Notes under the pieces: generated by a model
What the model was told of the DNA's origin: nothing
What the model saw: the letters and a program-made list of their open reading frames with translations, nothing else
Database searches by the model: none
Origin: an uncultured Prolixibacteraceae bacterium
Lineage (GTDB): Bacteria > Bacteroidota > Bacteroidia > Bacteroidales > Prolixibacteraceae
Direction: 5' to 3'
DNA: 40,000 bases
Assembly: GCA_963783085.1 (NCBI GenBank)
Contig: CAWAMJ010000012.1
Location: 100,331 to 140,330 of the forward strand
Made by a program: the position numbers and the translations under genes
Part shown: positions 1 through 40,000 of the stretch, one piece after another
Position numbering within the stretch: position 1 is the stretch's first letter
How the letters are laid out: the number at the start of each line of letters is the position of its first letter

Positions 1-1155
1 CTGGAGGATATTACCAAAACAAAGAAAAAGATAGCAGAACTGGAACAGGGGAAAAAAAGGTACAAAGTACTGCTGGAAGCTATTCCCGATATGTTTTTTG
101 TTATTGGGAAAGATGGCATGTACGAGGATTTTGTGATAAAAGAAAGCGATTTGTTTAAACTGGAAGATGCAAATATTGTCGGGAGCACCATTTATGATGT
201 AGGATTTCCGGAAAATATGGCAAAGAAAATTCACCAGTGTATTCATACCTGTATCGCAAATAATTCCCTCGAAACCATCGAATATTCGCTCACAACCCCC
301 AACGGAATTTTCATGTACGAGATGCGCCTGGCAAAATTAAATGCACGCTCTGTCATTTCCATAGCACGTGATATCACCAAACGAAAAACCGCCGAAATCG
401 GACTTGAAAAAGCGATAAAGAAAGCAGAAGAATCGGACAGGCTGAAGTCCGCTTTCCTATCGAACCTGTCGCATGAAATCAGGACGCCACTGAATATTAT
501 CACCAATTTCACACGGATGTTGACCGAAGCAGATATGGACGACGAAGAAAAGACAGAAATCTCGGATGCCATCATGCAAAATGGTTCGCAATTGTTGAAC
601 ATGATCGATAATACCGTCCATCTTTCTCAAATAGAAACCGGCACCGTCATCCTCAGCCCGCGTTTTTGTAAAATAAACACATTAATCCGCGACGTATACA
701 ACTGGTTTCTGCCCAACATCCCCGATAATAAAAAATTGAAGATCAACCTGAAAATAAGTGTTCCCAATCCGGCATTCGGATTTATTTCTGATCCGAACCG
801 GTTAAACGATGTCCTTAAAATTCTGGTAGACAATGCCGTTAAATATACGCCCAAAGGGGAAATTGATTTGGGTTATGAAATGCTCCGCAACGAACAGGTT
901 AAGTTCTATGTTTCAGACACCGGTATTGGAATCCCGGAAGAAGAAGCAGAAAACATATTCAGCCGTTTTTACCGGGTGCAAAATAAAATTAACGAACGCA
1001 CATCGGGTTCGGGGCTTGGGCTGCCAATTGCCAGGCATTATGTCACCTTGCTGGGGGGCGAACTTCAACTGGAATCCACACCCGGGAAAGGCACCCGGTT
1101 CTGGTTCTCGCTGCCTTTCCGTGAAGGAGAAGGATTTCTGAGGATCGTAAACTAA
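1..1155 (+). CDS. sensor histidine kinase, 5' end outside window (PAS-like region, HisKA, HATPase_c)
   Basis: Frame 1 is open from nt 1 (LEDITKTKKK...), so the listed Met at 91 is internal. Motifs seen: H-box SHEIRTPLN, N-box DNAVKYTP, G-boxes DTGIGI and GSGLGLPIARHYV. Confidence 0.85.
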   Translation: MEDITKTKKKIAELEQGKKRYKVLLEAIPDMFFVIGKDGMYEDFVIKESDLFKLEDANIVGSTIYDVGFPENMAKKIHQCIHTCIANNSLETIEYSLTTPNGIFMYEMRLAKLNARSVISIARDITKRKTAEIGLEKAIKKAEESDRLKSAFLSNLSHEIRTPLNIITNFTRMLTEADMDDEEKTEISDAIMQNGSQLLNMIDNTVHLSQIETGTVILSPRFCKINTLIRDVYNWFLPNIPDNKKLKINLKISVPNPAFGFISDPNRLNDVLKILVDNAVKYTPKGEIDLGYEMLRNEQVKFYVSDTGIGIPEEEAENIFSRFYRVQNKINERTSGSGLGLPIARHYVTLLGGELQLESTPGKGTRFWFSLPFREGEGFLRIVN

Positions 1156-27060: not shown

Positions 27061-27360
27061 TTAGTTTATTGTTAATCCTAATTTTTTTCCTAATCCCTCC
27101 TCGAAAATCTTAAACAGAGTAGAAATCTGAATATCAATTTTTCCATTTTCCAGTCGCGAGATATAACTTTTTTTAGTCCCTGTTTTTTTTGCCAGGTCTT
27201 CTTGGGTGAGATGAGCCTTTTTTCTTTCTTCTTTTATCATTTCTCCAACAATAAAAGCTTTTGCTTTCATTTCAAATTCATCACGTTTTTCTGTTCCTAG
27301 TTTTCCGTATTTGATGTCTAATAATTCATCAAAATTTGTTGCATCTTTTATTGTTTTCAT
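27061..27360 (-). CDS. XRE-family HTH antitoxin (HigA-like)
   Basis: 99 aa with HTH LTQEDLAKKTGTKKSYISRLENGK. A 4-nt ATGA overlap couples it to the upstream toxin gene. Confidence 0.8.
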   Translation of the reverse strand: MKTIKDATNFDELLDIKYGKLGTEKRDEFEMKAKAFIVGEMIKEERKKAHLTQEDLAKKTGTKKSYISRLENGKIDIQISTLFKIFEEGLGKKLGLTIN

Positions 27361-27704
27361 TTTCCTTCTCCTTTTTTGTTTTTGAAATAATCCTCTTTTA
27401 TTTTTAATGCTTTTTCAATTTCTTTCTTTGGTGTTTTCTGACTTTTTTTCTGAAATCCATTGAATAAAACAACAATGCGACCAGCGTCAAAACAACAAAA
27501 TACCCGATAAATGTCAGAACCAACTTTTATCCTTATTTCATAAAGTCCAACCGTACTTTCAACATTTTTTAAGAATTTCTGAGGAATTAAATCCACAGTT
27601 TTAATTACCTTAAAAACATACTCTATTTTTTCTTGTACTGATGAATCAAGTGAAATATAGTAATCAATAAAATAGTTTTTATAAAATTTTATCTCTCGGG
27701 TCAT
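27357..27704 (-). CDS. RelE/ParE-superfamily toxin (HigB/Gp49-like)
   Basis: 115 aa. Toxin-first order with a coupled XRE antitoxin. The LYEIRIKVGSDIYRVFCCFD pattern is typical of the Gp49/HigB group. Confidence 0.7.
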   Translation of the reverse strand: MTREIKFYKNYFIDYYISLDSSVQEKIEYVFKVIKTVDLIPQKFLKNVESTVGLYEIRIKVGSDIYRVFCCFDAGRIVVLFNGFQKKSQKTPKKEIEKALKIKEDYFKNKKGEGK

Positions 27705-28947: not shown

Positions 28948-29031
28948 TTTCTATGATGTATTTATTAAAATCATGCGATAACGGTTCAGTAGTCGAGTAG
29001 GCAAAGGGAGTTTCACCCTAAGCCTCTCACA

Positions 29032-29065
29032 GAACCGTGCTTGATAGTCTCCCATCACACGGCTC
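29032..29065 (-). ncRNA. group II intron domain V
   Basis: GAGCCGUGUGAUGGGAGACUAUCAAGCACGGUUC: 34 nt, AGC catalytic triad, 2-nt AA bulge, GAGA (GNRA) tetraloop, fully paired lower and upper stems. Confidence 0.9.
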
Positions 29066-29108
29066 TTGCCTGCCTGGTCGGCAGACAGGTTATACAAATC
29101 TAAACGCT

Positions 29109-30362
29109 TCATTTAAATAAACCAATTTGCCAATGGTAAAATAATGTAGGAAATTGAAACTGCACTTTTTCTAACCATATATAGGCACGGTTTACACTGG
29201 TTTTGTAGCGTTTGTACCTTCTCCTTGCCCAGCGTATTAATCGCTTTCGCAGTAGCTGAAAGATTGGATTCAGTTCGTGTTTCCTGAACTTACCGAAGTA
29301 GTTAACCCACCCTCGTATAAAAGGGTTTAAAAATTGGGCAACGCCTACAATACTTTTGTAAGTCAGTCCAACAATGTCCAATTCCTCCATCTTGTCTGCA
29401 ATACGTTTCTTCGAACTAATACTGATGGCACAATCGTAACCCAAGAACAGTTTCCCTGTCTTTGGCGATTTGGTTGTGCGCGGCTGAAACGAATACCCAA
29501 GAAAATCGAACTTAACGGTCGGATAATTGCTTTGACGTCTATAATCTCGGCAATACACCAGTTTAGTCTTTTCAGGGTGCAATTCCAACCCACAATCAGC
29601 CATACGTCCACGTATTTTTACCAACAACCACTCTGCATGGGCTTTGCTCTTACAGTGAAGTATCGCATCATCTGCGTAACGTTCAAAACTCACTGTTTTG
29701 TGCTTCAGTTCAAGCCATTTGTCCATGGCATAATGAAGAAACAGGTTTGCCAGCAACGGGCTTATCACCCCACCCTGCGGTGTGCCTTTCCCCTGCTTTT
29801 GAACCAGTTCGCCTGATTTCTTTTGCACGGGTGCATTTAACCACCGTTTGATGTAAAATAAACACCAGTTTTCCGAAACATGTTTCTCTACTGCAAGCAT
29901 CAGTTTTCCGTGGTCTATATTATCAAAGAAACCTTTAATGTCGAGGTCGATTACCCAGTCTGTTTTCCTGCAATTATTCCGAACCGATTCGAGTGCCTGA
30001 TGGGCATCCTTGTTCGGACGGTAACCATAGGAGTTTGAACTGAATATCTTTTCAAACCTCGGTTCTAAGTAATCTTTAATAACCATTTGCCCTATCCTGT
30101 CGGCGATGGTTGGAATCCCAAGTTTTCGGGTTTTACCATCTTTCTTGGCTATCTCAACTTCTTTAACAGGTGGCGGAAAATAGCTGCCCGATGCCATGCG
30201 GTTCCAAAGTTTGTACAAGTGTTTTGACCTGTCTGCATCGAATTCTTCCATGCTGATTTCGTCAATGCCTGCACTCCCTTTATTGGCTTTCACTTTCTTG
30301 TAAGCCGCCCATACCATTTCGCGGCTTACAGGTACTGATTTTGTCTCATTCCATAAATTCAT
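29109..30362 (-). CDS. group II intron reverse transcriptase/maturase
   Basis: 417 aa with RT motifs (GIPTIADRIGQ, TPQGGVISPLLANLFL, YADDAILHC) and a maturase X region (RGWVNYFG). No C-terminal HNH/En domain. Confidence 0.92.
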   Translation of the reverse strand: MNLWNETKSVPVSREMVWAAYKKVKANKGSAGIDEISMEEFDADRSKHLYKLWNRMASGSYFPPPVKEVEIAKKDGKTRKLGIPTIADRIGQMVIKDYLEPRFEKIFSSNSYGYRPNKDAHQALESVRNNCRKTDWVIDLDIKGFFDNIDHGKLMLAVEKHVSENWCLFYIKRWLNAPVQKKSGELVQKQGKGTPQGGVISPLLANLFLHYAMDKWLELKHKTVSFERYADDAILHCKSKAHAEWLLVKIRGRMADCGLELHPEKTKLVYCRDYRRQSNYPTVKFDFLGYSFQPRTTKSPKTGKLFLGYDCAISISSKKRIADKMEELDIVGLTYKSIVGVAQFLNPFIRGWVNYFGKFRKHELNPIFQLLRKRLIRWARRRYKRYKTSVNRAYIWLEKVQFQFPTLFYHWQIGLFK

Positions 30363-31063
30363 CCTCTTACCAGAGTTGTTAAATGTTATGATACTGTATA
30401 ACCTAACCCCTTTGCTCCATCTCGATTACCGAGACTTCATCACTACTACGGGTTAGTCCGTCTCCCGACATTTCGTCGGGATTCCCGAGTTCCGTAATTA
30501 AACCTGGATAAAGTTCATGCCGCCTGAATGACGCCAGCCGAATGGATAGTAAACAGGTAACTTCCAAACTTAATGTTGTTTACAACACTATTTTTCACTC
30601 CGTCACATACTTCGTAGCTTTTGACTGGATGTGGCCACTTCTCGACACCTCTTCAGCGGTTACGGTTAGTTCATCTCCTTTATCCATACCTGATAACCTC
30701 GTGGGCTACCTTTTCCTAAACGCTCAATACCATGCCTCTTAAACACAGCACCTTTAGGTGGTTTAAAACCCTTGCCTGTACAACGGTCTTAGTGGGTCGG
30801 TTCCACCATCTTAACTACAGCATGCAAAGAACTAAAACTGCCGATTCTTTGCTTCTCGGCACACCAAGTGGAGTGCGGGATTTTGAAACGGTTTCCTGTC
30901 AAACCTGCACGGAGCCAAGCCGGCTTTTTATTAAACATCATTTTTAAACCGTAATCCGTCAAAGACGGATTGGCGGTGGTTGAACAGGGCGAAAAACGCT
31001 GGAACACCACGCCCGCCCGCATTACATTTGCACTTTGTTATAGCCAGTGTTTTATTCTCTTAT

Positions 31064-31641: not shown

Positions 31642-32040
31642 TTAACTTTTATAAATCAGGTTCATTTCAGATAGTTCTTGTCCAATTTGATGAATTCCAC
31701 TCAATATTTTTTCAGTTTGGTTCTCAGACGGCTTTTTACGTCCTTGTACATATTGGGACAATAACGTTGGATTCATTCCAATTTTTTCTGCAAGAAATTT
31801 TGCATTGAGCACTTTATAATATTGAAAGAATTGCGCAAAGTCAATTTCAAATTTTAAGTTCTCATGCGTAATCTCAAATTCTTCTTCAAAGTTTAATTGA
31901 GTAGCTTCAAGTGCATTATTTATTAATTCAGGAATAGTTCTCCCGGTAGTAAATATTGGATATTCTTCTGAATATGCTGAAAAACCAGTCTTTGTTTTTT
32001 CAACTATTATTTTAATTTTTTTCTTTAATGTTTTCATCAT
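31642..32040 (-). CDS. hicB: HicB-family antitoxin with C-terminal HTH
   Basis: N-terminal IVEKTKTGFSAYSEEYPIFTTGRTIPEL (HicB fold) plus C-terminal FLAEKIGMNPTLLSQYVQGRKKPS (HTH). Lies 8 nt downstream of hicA. Confidence 0.75.
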   Translation of the reverse strand: MMKTLKKKIKIIVEKTKTGFSAYSEEYPIFTTGRTIPELINNALEATQLNFEEEFEITHENLKFEIDFAQFFQYYKVLNAKFLAEKIGMNPTLLSQYVQGRKKPSENQTEKILSGIHQIGQELSEMNLIYKS

Positions 32041-32048
32041 TCTTGTTT

Positions 32049-32237
32049 TTAAATTGTAATTCCTGCATCTCTCAAAATTTTCTTCTCAAGTCCTTTACCG
32101 ACTTCTTGACTTCCATGGTTTGGAAAAATTATTATTCCTTCTTTTTGGTCATGTTTCAATTTAACATGTGACCCTTTTTGAGAAATTGGATACCACCCAT
32201 GTTTTTTCAAGAGTTGGAATAATTCGGAACATTTCAT
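32049..32237 (-). CDS. hicA: HicA-family mRNA interferase toxin
   Basis: 62 aa; LLKKHGWYPISQKGSHVKLKH...IIIFPNHGSQEVGKGLEKKILRDAGI matches the HicA/YcfA pattern. Confidence 0.85.
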   Translation of the reverse strand: MKCSELFQLLKKHGWYPISQKGSHVKLKHDQKEGIIIFPNHGSQEVGKGLEKKILRDAGITI

Positions 32238-32542: not shown

Positions 32543-33407
32543 ATGACAAATTTAAAAAAAATTCGAACAGGAATCTGTTCTGCGGAACTTAAGTGAAAGG
32601 ACCAGGAAAAGTTACTGGTGGCACATAGTTGACTACAGCAAATTTTGCAAAAAAGACCCTGGGCAAACAGGAGTGCAAGAGCTGAGGGCTTATTTCCAGT
32701 CGATGCTCACCGACGGTAACCACAAACCGGGAAGTGTAAAAATGGGATATTTTGCCCTTCGTTTCCTGTTTACCAACATTTACCACAAAGAATGGGCAAA
32801 ACAATACCTTCCAACGCCAAAAGTTGCCAAAACACTTCCGCTGGTTTTGTCGAAAGACGAAGTAACCGATGTACTTGGGGCCATTGACAACTTCAAGCAC
32901 CGCACCATCATTATGCTTATTTATTCCACCGGGGCCAGGGTATCGGAAAGTGTGAACATCAAACTGACCGATATCGACAGCCGGCGGATGCAGGTCAACA
33001 TCCAGGAAGGGAAAGGTCTGAAGCAACGGAAAGTTCCGCTCTCGCCTGCACTGCTCTCTGTATTGCGAAAATATTACCGGCAGTACAAACCAGGGCATTA
33101 CCTTTTCGAAGGCGCCGGGGGAAAAGGCACACACCTGGGCATTACTGCTGTACGGACTATTTGCACTAATGCACGGCACCGCACGCTACACATTAAAAAG
33201 CCCTACACACCGCACACTTTTCGCCACAGTTTTGCCACACACCACCTCGAACAGGGCACCAGCCTGTTGGTCATACAGCGTTTGTTGGGACATTCCGATT
33301 TAAGCAATACCCTAAAATACCTGCATGTGCAGCAACTCAACACCGGCCAGGTGGTAAACCCGCTGGATACGCTGGAAGGATTGGAGGGGCTATGCAACAT
33401 CAAATAA
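32543..33407 (+). CDS. tyrosine recombinase/integrase of the IS91-type unit; N-terminus out of frame at an A8 run
   Basis: Box I TGARVSE and box II HTFRHSFATH...LLGHS...TLKYLH. ATG 32543 (MTNLKK) is in a different frame from the main ORF. The homologous N-terminal sequence (FEQESVLRNLSERTRKSY...) is open in the main frame only from 32556. Confidence 0.7.
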
Positions 33408-34600
33408 GCCTTGAGAATATCCTGAACGAATATGGCGAAGGCTATATCAGCCGGAACCGGGTTTCAGGACAGGAAAAAGGGTTGGTGCGCCTGTTATCAG
33501 CGTGCCGCACAGCAGGCCTTGGCAGCCATTTTGAAAAATGCGACCATTGCAGCCATACCGAAAAATCCTATAATTCCTGTCGCAACCGCCACTGCCCTGC
33601 GTGCCAGCAAAAAGACAAACTGGAGTGGATGGACAAACGTATGAAAGAACTCCTGCCGGTGGGATATTACCACCTGGTGTTTACCCTGCCTCACGAATTA
33701 AACCTGCTTTGCCTTCAAAATAAAAAGGTGATGTACGGCCTGCTTTTTAAAACTGTATCGCAAACCCTGCTGGAACTTGCCCGCGACCCCAAACACCTGG
33801 GGGCAGATATTGGGTTAATTACTGTCTTGCACACGTGGGGACAAAACATGAAAGAACACCCCCACCTACACTGCATTATGCCGGCAGGCGGGCTCAGCTT
33901 TGACCGTAACCACTGGGTACATATTCCCAATAAAAACAATTTCTTTATTGCCGGGAAAGTGCTGTCCAAAAAGTTCAGGGGCAAGTTTTTGCATCTGCTA
34001 AAGCAGTCGAAGGTAAACGGGGAACTTGTTTTTCACGGAAAACTGGCAGACATAAAAGGGCCGGTGCAGTTTGACCGGTTCCTTACGCCTCTGTACCAAA
34101 AGCAATGGGTAGTGAATGTGCAGAAACCCATGGGCAACCCCGAAAAGATACTGGAATACCTCTCGCGTTATGTGTTCCGCATTGCCATTACCGGCCGGCG
34201 TATCCTGGAAGTGAAAGACGGGAAGGTACTCTTTTCGTGGAAAGACTACCGCACCAACCGTTTCCGCAAAATGTGGCTCGATACCGATGAGTTTATCCGC
34301 CGGTTCCTGTCGCATGTATTGCCAAAGGGGTTCTTTAAGGTGCGGTATTTCGGTATTTTTTCCAGCCGTTACCGGAAACAAAATATTGAAACTGCCCGGA
34401 AGCTCCTGGCTGAAGAGACTGAAACCAAAAAAGAAGAGGCTTTGGAAGATGGCCGCCGGATTTGGGAAAAACAGGATACGGTGTGGAATGAAATCCTTGA
34501 ACTTATTAAAAACCACCGCCAGCCCAACTGCCCGGCATGTAAAAAAGGAAGGTTACGCTTTGCCGGATTGGTAAAGGATGTACCATTGGAACCAGGTTAA
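33392..34600 (+). CDS. IS91-family (HUH, Y2) rolling-circle transposase
   Basis: Zn-binding CDHCSH...SCRNRHCPACQ, then LLPVGYYHLVFTLP, HUH-like HPHLHCIMP, and the tyrosine region LEYLSRYVFRIAI. Confidence 0.88.
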   Translation: MQHQISLENILNEYGEGYISRNRVSGQEKGLVRLLSACRTAGLGSHFEKCDHCSHTEKSYNSCRNRHCPACQQKDKLEWMDKRMKELLPVGYYHLVFTLPHELNLLCLQNKKVMYGLLFKTVSQTLLELARDPKHLGADIGLITVLHTWGQNMKEHPHLHCIMPAGGLSFDRNHWVHIPNKNNFFIAGKVLSKKFRGKFLHLLKQSKVNGELVFHGKLADIKGPVQFDRFLTPLYQKQWVVNVQKPMGNPEKILEYLSRYVFRIAITGRRILEVKDGKVLFSWKDYRTNRFRKMWLDTDEFIRRFLSHVLPKGFFKVRYFGIFSSRYRKQNIETARKLLAEETETKKEEALEDGRRIWEKQDTVWNEILELIKNHRQPNCPACKKGRLRFAGLVKDVPLEPG

Positions 34601-37826: not shown

Positions 37827-39185
37827 TTAACCAGCAGGCAAGTGTCTTTTATATTGCGCCCAAGCTGATATGAGGCCGGGGAAACAAATTAAATTATCGT
37901 GTCCCCTTTTCAGTTCCAGTACATATCCCAACCCTTTTTCAGGTGTTTCAGCGTCATTGCCAGGCGACCAGTGCAATAATACACTGGTTGAGTCTGTATT
38001 AGCGCTCAGACTTTGAGGTTGTTCGGGGCTGGTGTTGCTTTTGGTAGTATTGTTCAGGTATATTTTAGTGACCCGATCACGATACCCTGAACTTAAAAGG
38101 TTTCCTTCCCCTGTAACAATAATATCTAAATCATGGTCATTATCAATATCTCCAAATTTGATTACGCCCCCTTCAACACCCTGAATATTTTCACCTGTTT
38201 CTTCAGTAAAACTAACACCACCATTATTTTTATAAAGCGTGGTCTCTATATCATTGATGCCTACACCCGTAACCATAAAATCCAGCCAACCGTCATTGTT
38301 GAAGTCTCCTAAATCGATGGCAGCACTCCCTAAACGGTATCCACTTACAATTGGTTGTTCGTCGAACTTTAAATTATTGTTTCTGTATATCGTTACAAAG
38401 TTTTGGTCCGTGCCACATAAAAAAATATCTAAATAGCCGTCATTGTCATAGTCCCCCCATTTAGCCATGCCATATCTTAAATTTTTCAGTGAACTTGAGG
38501 TGTCGGCTACGAAAACATTATTTCCCTGATTAATGTAAATTTTTGAAAATCCATAATCAGGCCATCCGTTGTCACCTGTAACAAGCAAATCTAAATCTCC
38601 ATCTTTATCAAAGTCTCCCCAATCTGCGGATCCATTTGTCAGCGATGGAACAGATGTCTCTATTCTGCAGAAGTTATTTCTGCCATTGCTTTCATATAAG
38701 CCAGCCGTGGTGCTAAAGAGGTCAATATCCCCATCATTATCATAATCGCCAATTTCAAAGCTGGTAAACTCAGCATAATTAAATGACATATAATTTTGCA
38801 CTTCAAATTCTCCATTACCATTATTTTTACTAAAATTTGGAAAAGGAAAAACAGTAGAGTTAGTCCTACCATCCATAACCAGATCTAAGTCTCCATCATT
38901 ATCATAATCGAGAAAATCGATTTTCCCGAATTCAAATGCCGGCAGGTTGGTATTTATAGTATCCTTCTCAAATACATTATTTCCTTTGTTAAGATAGATA
39001 ACAGTTGTTGTTAAACCATCTCCTGAAATCAAAATATCCAGTAAGCCATCATTATTGATATCTCCCAGCGAGCAACAGCTATATTTAACCTGTGCCAGTC
39101 CGGCATTCTCCAATTCCGTATATATTTGCGCCATTATATAGCTAGGTGCAAATAACAGTACGATTATTACTAATGTTTTATACAT
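37827..39185 (-). CDS. FG-GAP/VCBS-repeat protein with signal peptide (5' part of the same split gene)
   Basis: Signal peptide MYKTLVIIVLLFAPSYIMAQ, FG-GAP repeats (GDINNDGLLD, DYDNDGDLD...). It ends in an out-of-frame tail after ...GHDNLI. Confidence 0.8.
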   Translation of the reverse strand: MYKTLVIIVLLFAPSYIMAQIYTELENAGLAQVKYSCCSLGDINNDGLLDILISGDGLTTTVIYLNKGNNVFEKDTINTNLPAFEFGKIDFLDYDNDGDLDLVMDGRTNSTVFPFPNFSKNNGNGEFEVQNYMSFNYAEFTSFEIGDYDNDGDIDLFSTTAGLYESNGRNNFCRIETSVPSLTNGSADWGDFDKDGDLDLLVTGDNGWPDYGFSKIYINQGNNVFVADTSSSLKNLRYGMAKWGDYDNDGYLDIFLCGTDQNFVTIYRNNNLKFDEQPIVSGYRLGSAAIDLGDFNNDGWLDFMVTGVGINDIETTLYKNNGGVSFTEETGENIQGVEGGVIKFGDIDNDHDLDIIVTGEGNLLSSGYRDRVTKIYLNNTTKSNTSPEQPQSLSANTDSTSVLLHWSPGNDAETPEKGLGYVLELKRGHDNLICFPGLISAWAQYKRHLPAG

Positions 39186-39198
39186 GTTTTTTAAATTA

Positions 39199-39389
39199 TT
39201 GCTAACGGTTTGGCTATGTGGAGTGCGGGACTTTGAAACGCTTCACGGTCAGGCTGCCACTGAGCCAATTCGTTTATTCAAATTTTGTTTTTATAGCCAA
39301 ATCGTCAAAGACGAATTGGCGGTGTTGCAACGAAGCACAGCTGTTTGATTACGCACTGCACCCCGCATTACATATAGCTTTTGTTGTGC
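39199..39389 (-). other. large attC-like structured element (191 nt), uninterrupted copy
   Basis: R''-like GCACAAC (39389-39383) lies 13 nt after the stop at 39403. R'-like ACC-GTTAGCAA (39206-39199) lies 13 nt before the ATG at 39185. It shares conserved blocks with 30865-31045: ATGTAATGCGGG, CACCGCCAAT-CGTCTTTGACG, CGTTTCAAA-TCCCGCACTCCAC. Confidence 0.6.
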
Positions 39390-39402
39390 TTTCGTGCTTT
39401 TC

Positions 39403-40000
39403 TTATTTTACAGCATCAATCAATATTTGTGTCTTTGAGCCTTGTTTTACATGCTGCTTATCTTCTAGGTCAAAATCAGCTCCGTCCATGGCATTTGTAG
39501 CTTGTTGAAATAATGGTAAATATCTTGCTTCATCATTTAAAATATCAATTATTGGTTCACAGAATCTATTCATCAAACGTTCACTATTGAATGGAGGATT
39601 ATCTTGGGCGCTTACTAATATTCTGAACATGGTTAATAAATGAAACCTAACACGTTTGTATTTGGAGTCTATAATTCTTCTTCTGAAAAGAGATTCAAGT
39701 CTATAATATGCAAGGGCACTCGTATAGTAAGGAATAAAAGCATGGTCCTCATTGAAAATTTGTGAAGAATCAGAATTCAACCTTTTTACAATAGAACCAA
39801 AATAACTTGTGACCAAATGGGGATTTTGGAGAAACATTGCTGAAAAGGATTTAATCTGAATAGGAATACTGATTATACGAGTCTTAGTCACAGAACTATC
39901 AGTATTATATTGTTTTGACCTTCTTTCGTAATAAAGTGCTCCATCTCCATCAAAAGACTTATAATATTGCTCCAATCTCCTTTGGAAATCAGTAAGTGCA
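39403..40000 (-). CDS. AIPR-like abortive-infection protein, C-terminal part (5' end outside window)
   Basis: The frame is open to the window edge (...ALTDFQRRLEQYYKSF). LYYERRSKQY...RIISIPIQIKSFSAMFLQNPH resembles the AIPR C-terminal region. Assignment is from memory. Confidence 0.5.
   Translation of the reverse strand, partial: ALTDFQRRLEQYYKSFDGDGALYYERRSKQYNTDSSVTKTRIISIPIQIKSFSAMFLQNPHLVTSYFGSIVKRLNSDSSQIFNEDHAFIPYYTSALAYYRLESLFRRRIIDSKYKRVRFHLLTMFRILVSAQDNPPFNSERLMNRFCEPIIDILNDEARYLPLFQQATNAMDGADFDLEDKQHVKQGSKTQILIDAVK

Follow-up and report, generated by a model that had tools for sequence, protein, structure and literature searches.

A class D group II intron lineage of Bacteroidota that very probably homes into the 3' arm of attC-like hairpins

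What kind of group II intron settles inside a hairpin of a cassette array, and how does it find its site? The question is raised by a 40,000-nt stretch of the genome of an uncultured Prolixibacteraceae bacterium, hereafter the window (C12:100331-140330 of a 5.7-Mb genome in 22 contigs; C5, C11 and C13 denote other contigs of the same genome). On the minus strand of the window, a group II intron interrupts an element resembling the attC recombination sites of integrons. Judged by its protein and its RNA, the intron is a bacterial class D intron (RmInt1-type, probably IIB-like) and not a class C intron. Comparison with its relatives makes it very probable that the lineage homes to the 3' arm (L') of attC-like hairpins separating cassettes, and that its members are full-length class D retroelements. 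The coordinates of all features are collected in Table 1.

The extent of the intron is well defined. Domain I matches the Rfam family RF01999 at 30807-30688 of the minus strand (102 bits, E 4.5e-20), and domains V/VI match RF00029 at 29067-28992 of the same strand (65 bits, E 8.7e-11). Read from the sequence, the intron begins with GUGUGCCGAG at 30864 and ends with ...CGAC at 28992, and the general features of group II introns are present, namely the GUGUG start, the ...GAC end, domain V, and domain VI with a bulged A. The ends are kept in 61 relatives as GTGTGCC[GA]AG ... CTACTCGA[CT]. The consensus fold of domain I, derived from 35 related sequences, contains 100 pairs, 65 of which show compensatory changes. 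The initial annotation, made from the window alone, was therefore right about the coordinates and the anatomy, including domain V and the bulged A at 28998, and the intron does fold from 30864, which had been set as a test. It had also described a reverse transcriptase (RT)/maturase with a YADD motif and without an endonuclease (En) domain. This is borne out by an intact open reading frame (ORF) of 417 aa for the intron-encoded protein (IEP), which is located in domain IV, between the two Rfam matches, and contains the domains RVT_1 (5.6e-39) and GIIM (1.8e-12) and scores 407 bits against TIGR04416 (cut-off 300).

In a search of plasmids, the IEP matched a 419-aa IEP encoded on S. meliloti pSymB with 46% identity at 96% coverage (389 bits); in tblastn, the alignment extends to residue 412 of 417. 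The pSymB intron is 1884 nt long from GUGUG to the end of domain VI. The class D table of Toro and Martinez-Abarca (PMC3552965) opens with Sr.me.I1/RmInt1, whose intron and IEP have just these lengths, and we therefore take the pSymB intron to be RmInt1. It matches the same domain I family, RF01999, with 113.7 bits. Members of class D are 1805-2001 nt long and encode IEPs of 401-430 aa (PMC3552965), and the window intron, with 1873 nt and a 417-aa En-less protein of RT-X type (X, maturase), falls within this range. A maximum-likelihood tree unites the window IEP with RmInt1, an E. coli plasmid IEP and eight relatives affiliated with Bacteroidota in a single clade (92/94).

The element interrupted by the intron is ∼198 nt long and follows a DUF6155 gene. 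Intron-free copies of it are found in the window at 39180-39415 and on other contigs at C5:202163-202402, C5:204322-204551 and C13:14093-14318, with weaker copies elsewhere in the genome. Joined without the intron, the flanks read ...CCACTTG^TACTGAACC (here and below, the caret marks an intron junction or an exchange point), align without gaps to the copies at 39180-39415, C5:202163-202402 and C13:14093-14318, and fold at -34.2 kcal/mol (z -2.7). In this fold, the outer box GCTATAAC pairs with GTTATCGC and is followed by an unpaired spacer, by the helix AGTGCAA/TTG^TACT, which the intron splits, and by a longer imperfect inner stem ending in ...GCGGG/CCCGC. Boxes of the attC type, R'' ...AAC and R' GTT..., close the imperfect palindrome (GGCTATAAC ... 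GTTATCGC). The junction CACTTG^TACT lies in L', on the top (sense) strand, 9 nt before the GTT of R'. The gap-free alignment to empty copies and the restored helix thus fix the insertion point to the nucleotide and place it inside the attC-like hairpin, as first proposed; the flanking genes lie on the same strand, and the intron is indeed sense to the cassette genes. We call the element attC-like rather than attC, since the genome contains no canonical integron integrase (IntI), all matches to TIGR02249 being below the cut-off.

Is this position peculiar to the window? A scan of species-representative genomes for similar IEPs yielded 80 loci, nearly all in Bacteroidota, with IEPs 62-92% identical to that of the window; the closest relatives belong to Prolixibacteraceae. 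Both intron ends and a common junction pattern were found at 61 loci. The 5' exons of the relatives end in ...CCGCAAC(N)CATA^ or variants of it, and GTT occurs at +8..+11 of the 3' exon in 34 out of 37 relatives. When the rejoined exons were folded as DNA, the junction was located inside the paired 3' arm, and the GTT paired with an upstream AAC in about half of the cases. The longest upstream ORF is on the intron strand in 26 of 26 loci, and so is the downstream ORF in 20 of 24. Given the shared position, the folds and the orientation of ORFs across the relatives, sense insertion inside L' is a rule of the lineage rather than an accident of the window. Locating R'' by its complementarity to R' proved unreliable, since the last bases of R' are already part of the following cassette, and folding was used instead.

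To see how the site is recognised, we turn to covariation between introns and exons, analysed as mutual information in 42 relatives with known flanks. Each of the exon positions -1..-6 has its top mutual information with one of the intron positions 256..261, where the bases can pair in 76-98% of the relatives and use two to four Watson-Crick pair types (exon/intron TTTCATA/TATGAAA, AACTTA/TAAGTT, CGTGTA/TACACG, ATTTAT/ATAAAT). These intron positions form exon-binding site 1 (EBS1), and the exon positions the corresponding intron-binding site (IBS1). A second loop, EBS2, is situated 27 nt upstream of EBS1 and covaries with exon positions from about -8 to -13 (loop/exon GTTGC/GCAAC, GTAGG/CCTAC, AGGGG/CCCCT, AGTGCGT/ACGCACT), with mutual-information peaks linking exon -9 and -11 to intron 227 and 229. 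The cognate EBS2 loops and exons share complements of 4.75 nt on average, compared with 3.91 (sd 0.13) after permutation, a difference of about 6 sd; none of the 300 permutations reached the cognate value. Covariation thus shows that the 5' exon is recognised by a 6-nt EBS1 together with a 4-7-nt EBS2, and that the two pair with ∼11-13 nt of the top strand of the hairpin arm. Since the pairing is with the coding-sense strand of the arm, it accounts for the insertion being always 8-11 nt upstream of GTT and sense to the cassettes. Homing just after stem-loops, as initially suggested, does not describe this site, which lies inside the 3' arm of the hairpin and is read by base pairing with EBS1 and EBS2. 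The tentative EBS1 candidate AAGTGG (30639-30634) proved wrong as well: covariation places EBS1 at intron positions 256-261 (30609-30604), and the AGUG within AAGTGG belongs to EBS2. In RmInt1, no exact complement of its exon was found that could serve as EBS1, the pairwise alignment of domain I being poor there.

Some loci deserve separate mention. At L008:4352 onward, introns are arranged head to tail, the 3' exon starting directly with the GTGTGCTGTGAG 5' end of another intron, and at L083:2425-2465, on a Persicobacter plasmid, the 5' exon ends with the ...CTACTCGAT 3' end of another intron. Both tandems are consistent with repeated homing into the same retained IBS2-IBS1. Six loci (L019, L023, L054, L055, L057 and L072) have IEPs 72-76% identical to that of the window and come from metagenome-assembled genomes labelled Smithella, Cloacimonadota, Marinimicrobia and Clostridia, mostly from very short contigs; they may reflect horizontal transfer or binning contamination. 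In the genome of the window, an unoccupied element at C13:14128 (CACT-C-CACTTA^C) has an L' arm that fits both EBS2 and EBS1.

Several observations weigh against a class D lineage that homes to these sites. The tree of IEPs was built without references from classes A, B, E or F. For exon position +1, no convincing EBS3 partner was found over the columns of domains I-IV by mutual information or pairing, the best column reaching 45% Watson-Crick pairs. IBS1 is itself base-paired inside the hairpin if the strand folds. Finally, the EBS1 of the window copy, UAUGUG, faces CACUUG at the occupied sites on C12 and C5, with one U.U mismatch and one G.U pair. Its exact complement, CACAUA, is present at the occupied site of the closest relative (L001) and also at the empty site 39215^39214, so that a perfectly matching site is empty while the occupied ones match imperfectly. 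For these two reasons, the window copy may splice or home poorly, and the CACUUG mismatch may mean either near-cognate homing or reduced splicing.

The alternative that survives best starts from the same mismatch. The window copy could be a decaying relic, complete in appearance but no longer splicing or moving, with its own exon unmatched by EBS1. Its EBS1-IBS1 pairing comprises four Watson-Crick pairs and one G.U out of six positions, compared with 5-6 pairs in 32 of the 51 relatives scored (∼60%), and the perfect target left unoccupied is only 8 kb away; partial changes of IBS are, on the other hand, tolerated in vitro by IIE and IIF introns (PMC3753933). The initial annotation had proposed a search of the genome for other copies and a comparison of their flanks, and the two copies that we found point in different directions. 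One, on C5, lies at the identical junction of another element; the other, on C13, is truncated at its 5' end and has lost the end of the arm, apparently by a deletion at a CCAC microhomology, and its EBS1, CAUGUU, is unlike that of the other two copies. While the truncated copy would fit decay, the C5 copy is a mosaic and thus a sign that intron copies have exchanged sequence recently. It has 98-100% identity to the C12 copy over the first ∼300 nt, where EBS1 and EBS2 lie, and 99-100% identity to the C13 copy over the remainder, which implies recombination or template switching between intron sublineages. Moreover, the ORF is intact in all three copies, with dN/dS of 0.07-0.09 among their IEPs, and in the window copy all ribozyme domains are intact. 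We therefore regard the relic as rather unlikely; the window intron is complete and probably still an active, self-splicing mobile element.

Another possibility is that the element is only a conserved intergenic repeat or a terminator-like hairpin, its link to integrons being coincidental. The element is long, at ∼198 nt, and no canonical IntI accompanies it. The recombinases that do adjoin the arrays, a 384-aa protein at C5:185977-187131 (plus strand) and a 406-aa protein at C13:17809-19029 (minus strand), are located upstream of two arrays and oriented like the cassettes; an N-terminal extension is common to both, but the insertion that IntI proteins carry between the GKGxKDR and HxLRH motifs is missing. 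Still, their very presence beside the arrays, as tyrosine recombinases, is more than a mere repeat would lead one to expect, and so are the boxes themselves, as AAC and GTT pair in about half of the folds of relatives. In addition, in the C5 array the sequence after G^TT of one element is the exact reverse complement of the next R'' box (GTTAGCGG/CCGCTAAT), and a second R' tail and next R'' are related in the same way (GTTACCTG/CAGGTAAC). Such complementarity is the footprint expected of cassette exchange at G^TT. The elements also stand in arrays whose cargo includes HicA/HicB-like and HigB/HigA-like pairs, and such toxin-antitoxin pairs are typical of sedentary cassette arrays. Taken together, this makes a coincidental repeat quite improbable.

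Two cargo modules lie in the window, both on the minus strand: a Gp49/HigB-like toxin with a helix-turn-helix antitoxin and a HicA toxin with a neighbouring ORF (27061-27704 and 31642-32237, respectively). A different recombinase was observed on the plus strand at 32673-34600, where a tyrosine recombinase (244-aa ORF, TIGR02249 145 bits, below the cut-off) and an IS91-family transposase share a few bases of overlap. This pair occurs also at C11:175165-175980, C11:167803-168534, C5:194936-195463 and C5:197327-198034, that is, in multiple copies inside or beside cassette arrays and divergent to the cassettes.

As for the class of the intron, the initial annotation had called it class C-like. Class C RTs do come first in a search of solved structures, with GsI-IIC at 1.6e-45 (158.9 bits) and the E. 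rectale IIC RT at 1e-43 (range 153-159 bits). To our knowledge, the PDB contains no class D IEP, and a ranking by solved structures alone is therefore misleading. In the tree, these two class C references are set apart from the window IEP on a branch of length 2.09. The RNA of class IIC is distinguished by a CGC triad in domain V, a distal stem shorter by 2 bp, an IBS1-EBS1 pairing of 3-4 bp and the absence of EBS2 (Toor et al., PMC1702495), whereas in the window intron the triad is AGC, domain V keeps its full length of 34 nt, its distal stem counts 5 bp, EBS1 has 6 nt and EBS2 is present. Nor does the intron have the loop of 5 nt known from domain V of IIE and IIF introns (PMC3753933). A class C or IIC-attC-like intron that reads the structure of a stem-loop and inserts just after the stem, in an unusual orientation, is thus hardly tenable: the En-less IEP, the compact intron and the hairpin at the target would suit it, but the IEP is much closer to that of RmInt1 (389 bits) than to the class C RTs of solved structure (at most 159 bits), each of the RNA features just listed for class IIC fails, and the insertion is inside the hairpin arm, not beyond the stem. 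The annotation had expected its class C reading to fall if the IEP grouped with another class and other copies lay in targets without stem-loops; the IEP is indeed not of class C, while the other copies sit in the same hairpin.

How might a class D intron use such a site? By analogy with RmInt1, its RNA probably reverse-splices into the sense strand exposed at the replication fork, and, the IEP being En-less, a nascent DNA strand would prime cDNA synthesis. Introns without En use primers of the replication fork (PMC4424553), and RmInt1 prefers the lagging-strand template (PMC4075523). The sense strand is locally G-rich at all three intron loci, and the sign of the GC skew fits the bias of RmInt1. 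This support for the fork model is confounded, since all genes there are on one strand, and it has to be set beside the points raised above. Its sense orientation would allow transcripts reading through the cassettes to carry it, to express its IEP and to be spliced. At the DNA level, the insertion parts the halves of the hairpin, L'' being separated from most of L' and from R' by 1.9 kb, and should therefore disable the recombination site and weld two neighbouring cassettes together.

These elements can be joined into one reading, which we put forward tentatively and as a possibility rather than as the likely state of affairs. The class D lineage may be a dedicated parasite of a non-canonical, IntI-less integron-like system of Bacteroidota, its EBS1 and EBS2 loops imitating the 5' arm (L'') to pair with the coding-strand L', and its choice of strand reflecting the exposure of one array strand as single-stranded DNA at the replication fork. 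If this is true, each insertion freezes a recombination site and fuses two cassettes, yet stays removable by splicing from cassette transcripts, and intron homing would shape both the mobility and the genesis of cassettes in this system. The covariation of EBS and IBS can be seen as a natural experiment on an intron tracking a rapidly diversifying repeat, and cassette arrays of this kind can be traced cheaply in genomes of Bacteroidota by the intron junction.

Table 1. Features of the intron, its exons and its copies (window positions unless a contig is given; the caret marks the intron junction).
Feature	Position	Strand	Basis or remark
Complete group II intron, 1873 nt, 5' GUGUG ... GAC 3'	28992..30864	-	Rfam matches, boundary conservation in 61 relatives, flank rejoining to empty element copies
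Domain I, intron positions 1-382, closing helix 4-10 / 376-382	30483..30864	-	Consensus fold and RF01999
Domain II, short hairpin CCCGAC-GAAA-UGUCGGG directly after the closing helix of domain I	30464..30480	-	Read from sequence
Domain V, 34 nt: AGC triad, AA bulge, 5-bp distal stem, GAGA loop	29032..29065	-	RF00029 and read from sequence
Domain VI, bulged branch A at 28998, 7 nt from the 3' splice site	28992..29030	-	RF00029 alignment and read from sequence
IEP, 417 aa, RT and maturase (X), YADD, no En domain	29109..30362	-	Pfam, TIGR04416, RmInt1 similarity
EBS1 UAUGUG, terminal loop of the ID3 hairpin	30604..30609	-	Covariation with exon
EBS2-type motif AGUG in a 15-nt internal loop, pairs with exon CACT (-11..-8)	30636..30639	-	Covariation
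5' exon: attC-like element with R'' box GGCTATAAC (31045-31037), L'' arm, loop and most of L' arm	30865..31045	-	Paralogue alignment, fold, nhmmer 200.7 bits
IBS2 CACT	30875-30872	-	In 5' exon
IBS1 CACTTG	30870-30865	-	In 5' exon
3' exon: rest of L' arm (TACT), spacer, R' box GTTATCGC with GTT at 28982-28980	28975..28991	-	Alignment and fold
Intron-free paralogue of the element	39180..39415	-	nhmmer 189 bits and alignment
Predicted empty homing site CCACATA^G (CACT-C-CACATA^G)	39215/39214	-	Perfect complement of EBS1 and of EBS2 AGUG
C12 copy (window)			Full length, 417-aa ORF
C5 copy	C5:199471-201397		Identical junction position in another element (CCCGCACTCCACTTG^TACC...GTTAGCGG), 416-aa ORF
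C13 copy	about C13:772-2571 (locus C13:772-2714)	-	First ∼102 nt and end of attC-like arm lost; intact 416-aa ORF

Among known systems, the intron is most similar to RmInt1 (Sr.me.I1) and other class D introns (PMC3552965), with which it shares an En-less IEP of RT-X type (∼417-419 aa, 46% identity to that of RmInt1). The class D table includes members from Bacteroidetes, such as Zu.pr.I2 (417 aa, in a "putative non-coding sequence"), and also Vi.vu.I1, found in a cassette of a Vibrio chromosomal integron (PMC3552965). Further similarities to RmInt1 are the intron length of ∼1.87-1.88 kb, the RF01999 domain I, the AGC triad, the 34-nt domain V, and exon recognition by EBS1 and EBS2. By contrast, no EBS3 covariation was seen in the window lineage, whereas the RNA type of class D is IIB-like with EBS1, EBS2 and EBS3. 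The targets are different as well: RmInt1 homes into the insertion sequence ISRm2011-2, and the window lineage into attC-like hairpins of cassette arrays, where it enters the 3' arm at a constant spacing from GTT. Class D introns such as RmInt1 have already been retargeted as gene-targeting tools, and a lineage whose code for structured DNA is simple and easy to read may therefore be of use.

In lifestyle, the intron resembles the IIC-attC introns (S.ma.I2 and relatives; Quiroga, Centron, Leon and Roy; PMC3001079), which are likewise En-less specialists in integron-type hairpins inside cassette arrays. The latter form a monophyletic subset of class C; their insertion point is R'' (TTGT/T) of the bottom strand, and they run antisense to the cassettes (PMC3001079, PMC7923331), an opposite orientation that the initial annotation had stated correctly. 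While IIC-attC introns rely on a 3-4-bp IBS1 and recognition of the stem-loop, the window intron is of class D, uses a 6-nt EBS1 and EBS2, and is inserted in the top strand, sense to the cassettes, in L' and not at R''. In full-text literature searches, no paper came up that describes attC-like sites of Bacteroidota as the homing target of a class D lineage. Sense-oriented or non-IIC introns near attC sites have been described by Sonbol and Siam (2021; PMC7923331), namely UHB.I2 (IIB1/CL1), which directly follows an attC and for which no conservation of the flanks is reported, the class E fragments H.ha.F1/F2 in CALIN (a cluster of attC sites lacking an integron integrase), and, from Enterobacter cloacae, a single unusual IIC intron that occupies the top strand. 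These are single cases of CL1, E and C, whereas the lineage described here comprises ∼60 class D loci with one position within the site and covariation of EBS and IBS. Recombination hairpins have thus been colonised by introns more than once; the second class pairs with the sequence of its target, uses the opposite strand and a different position, and lies in sense orientation, in a phylum whose arrays lack a canonical integron integrase.

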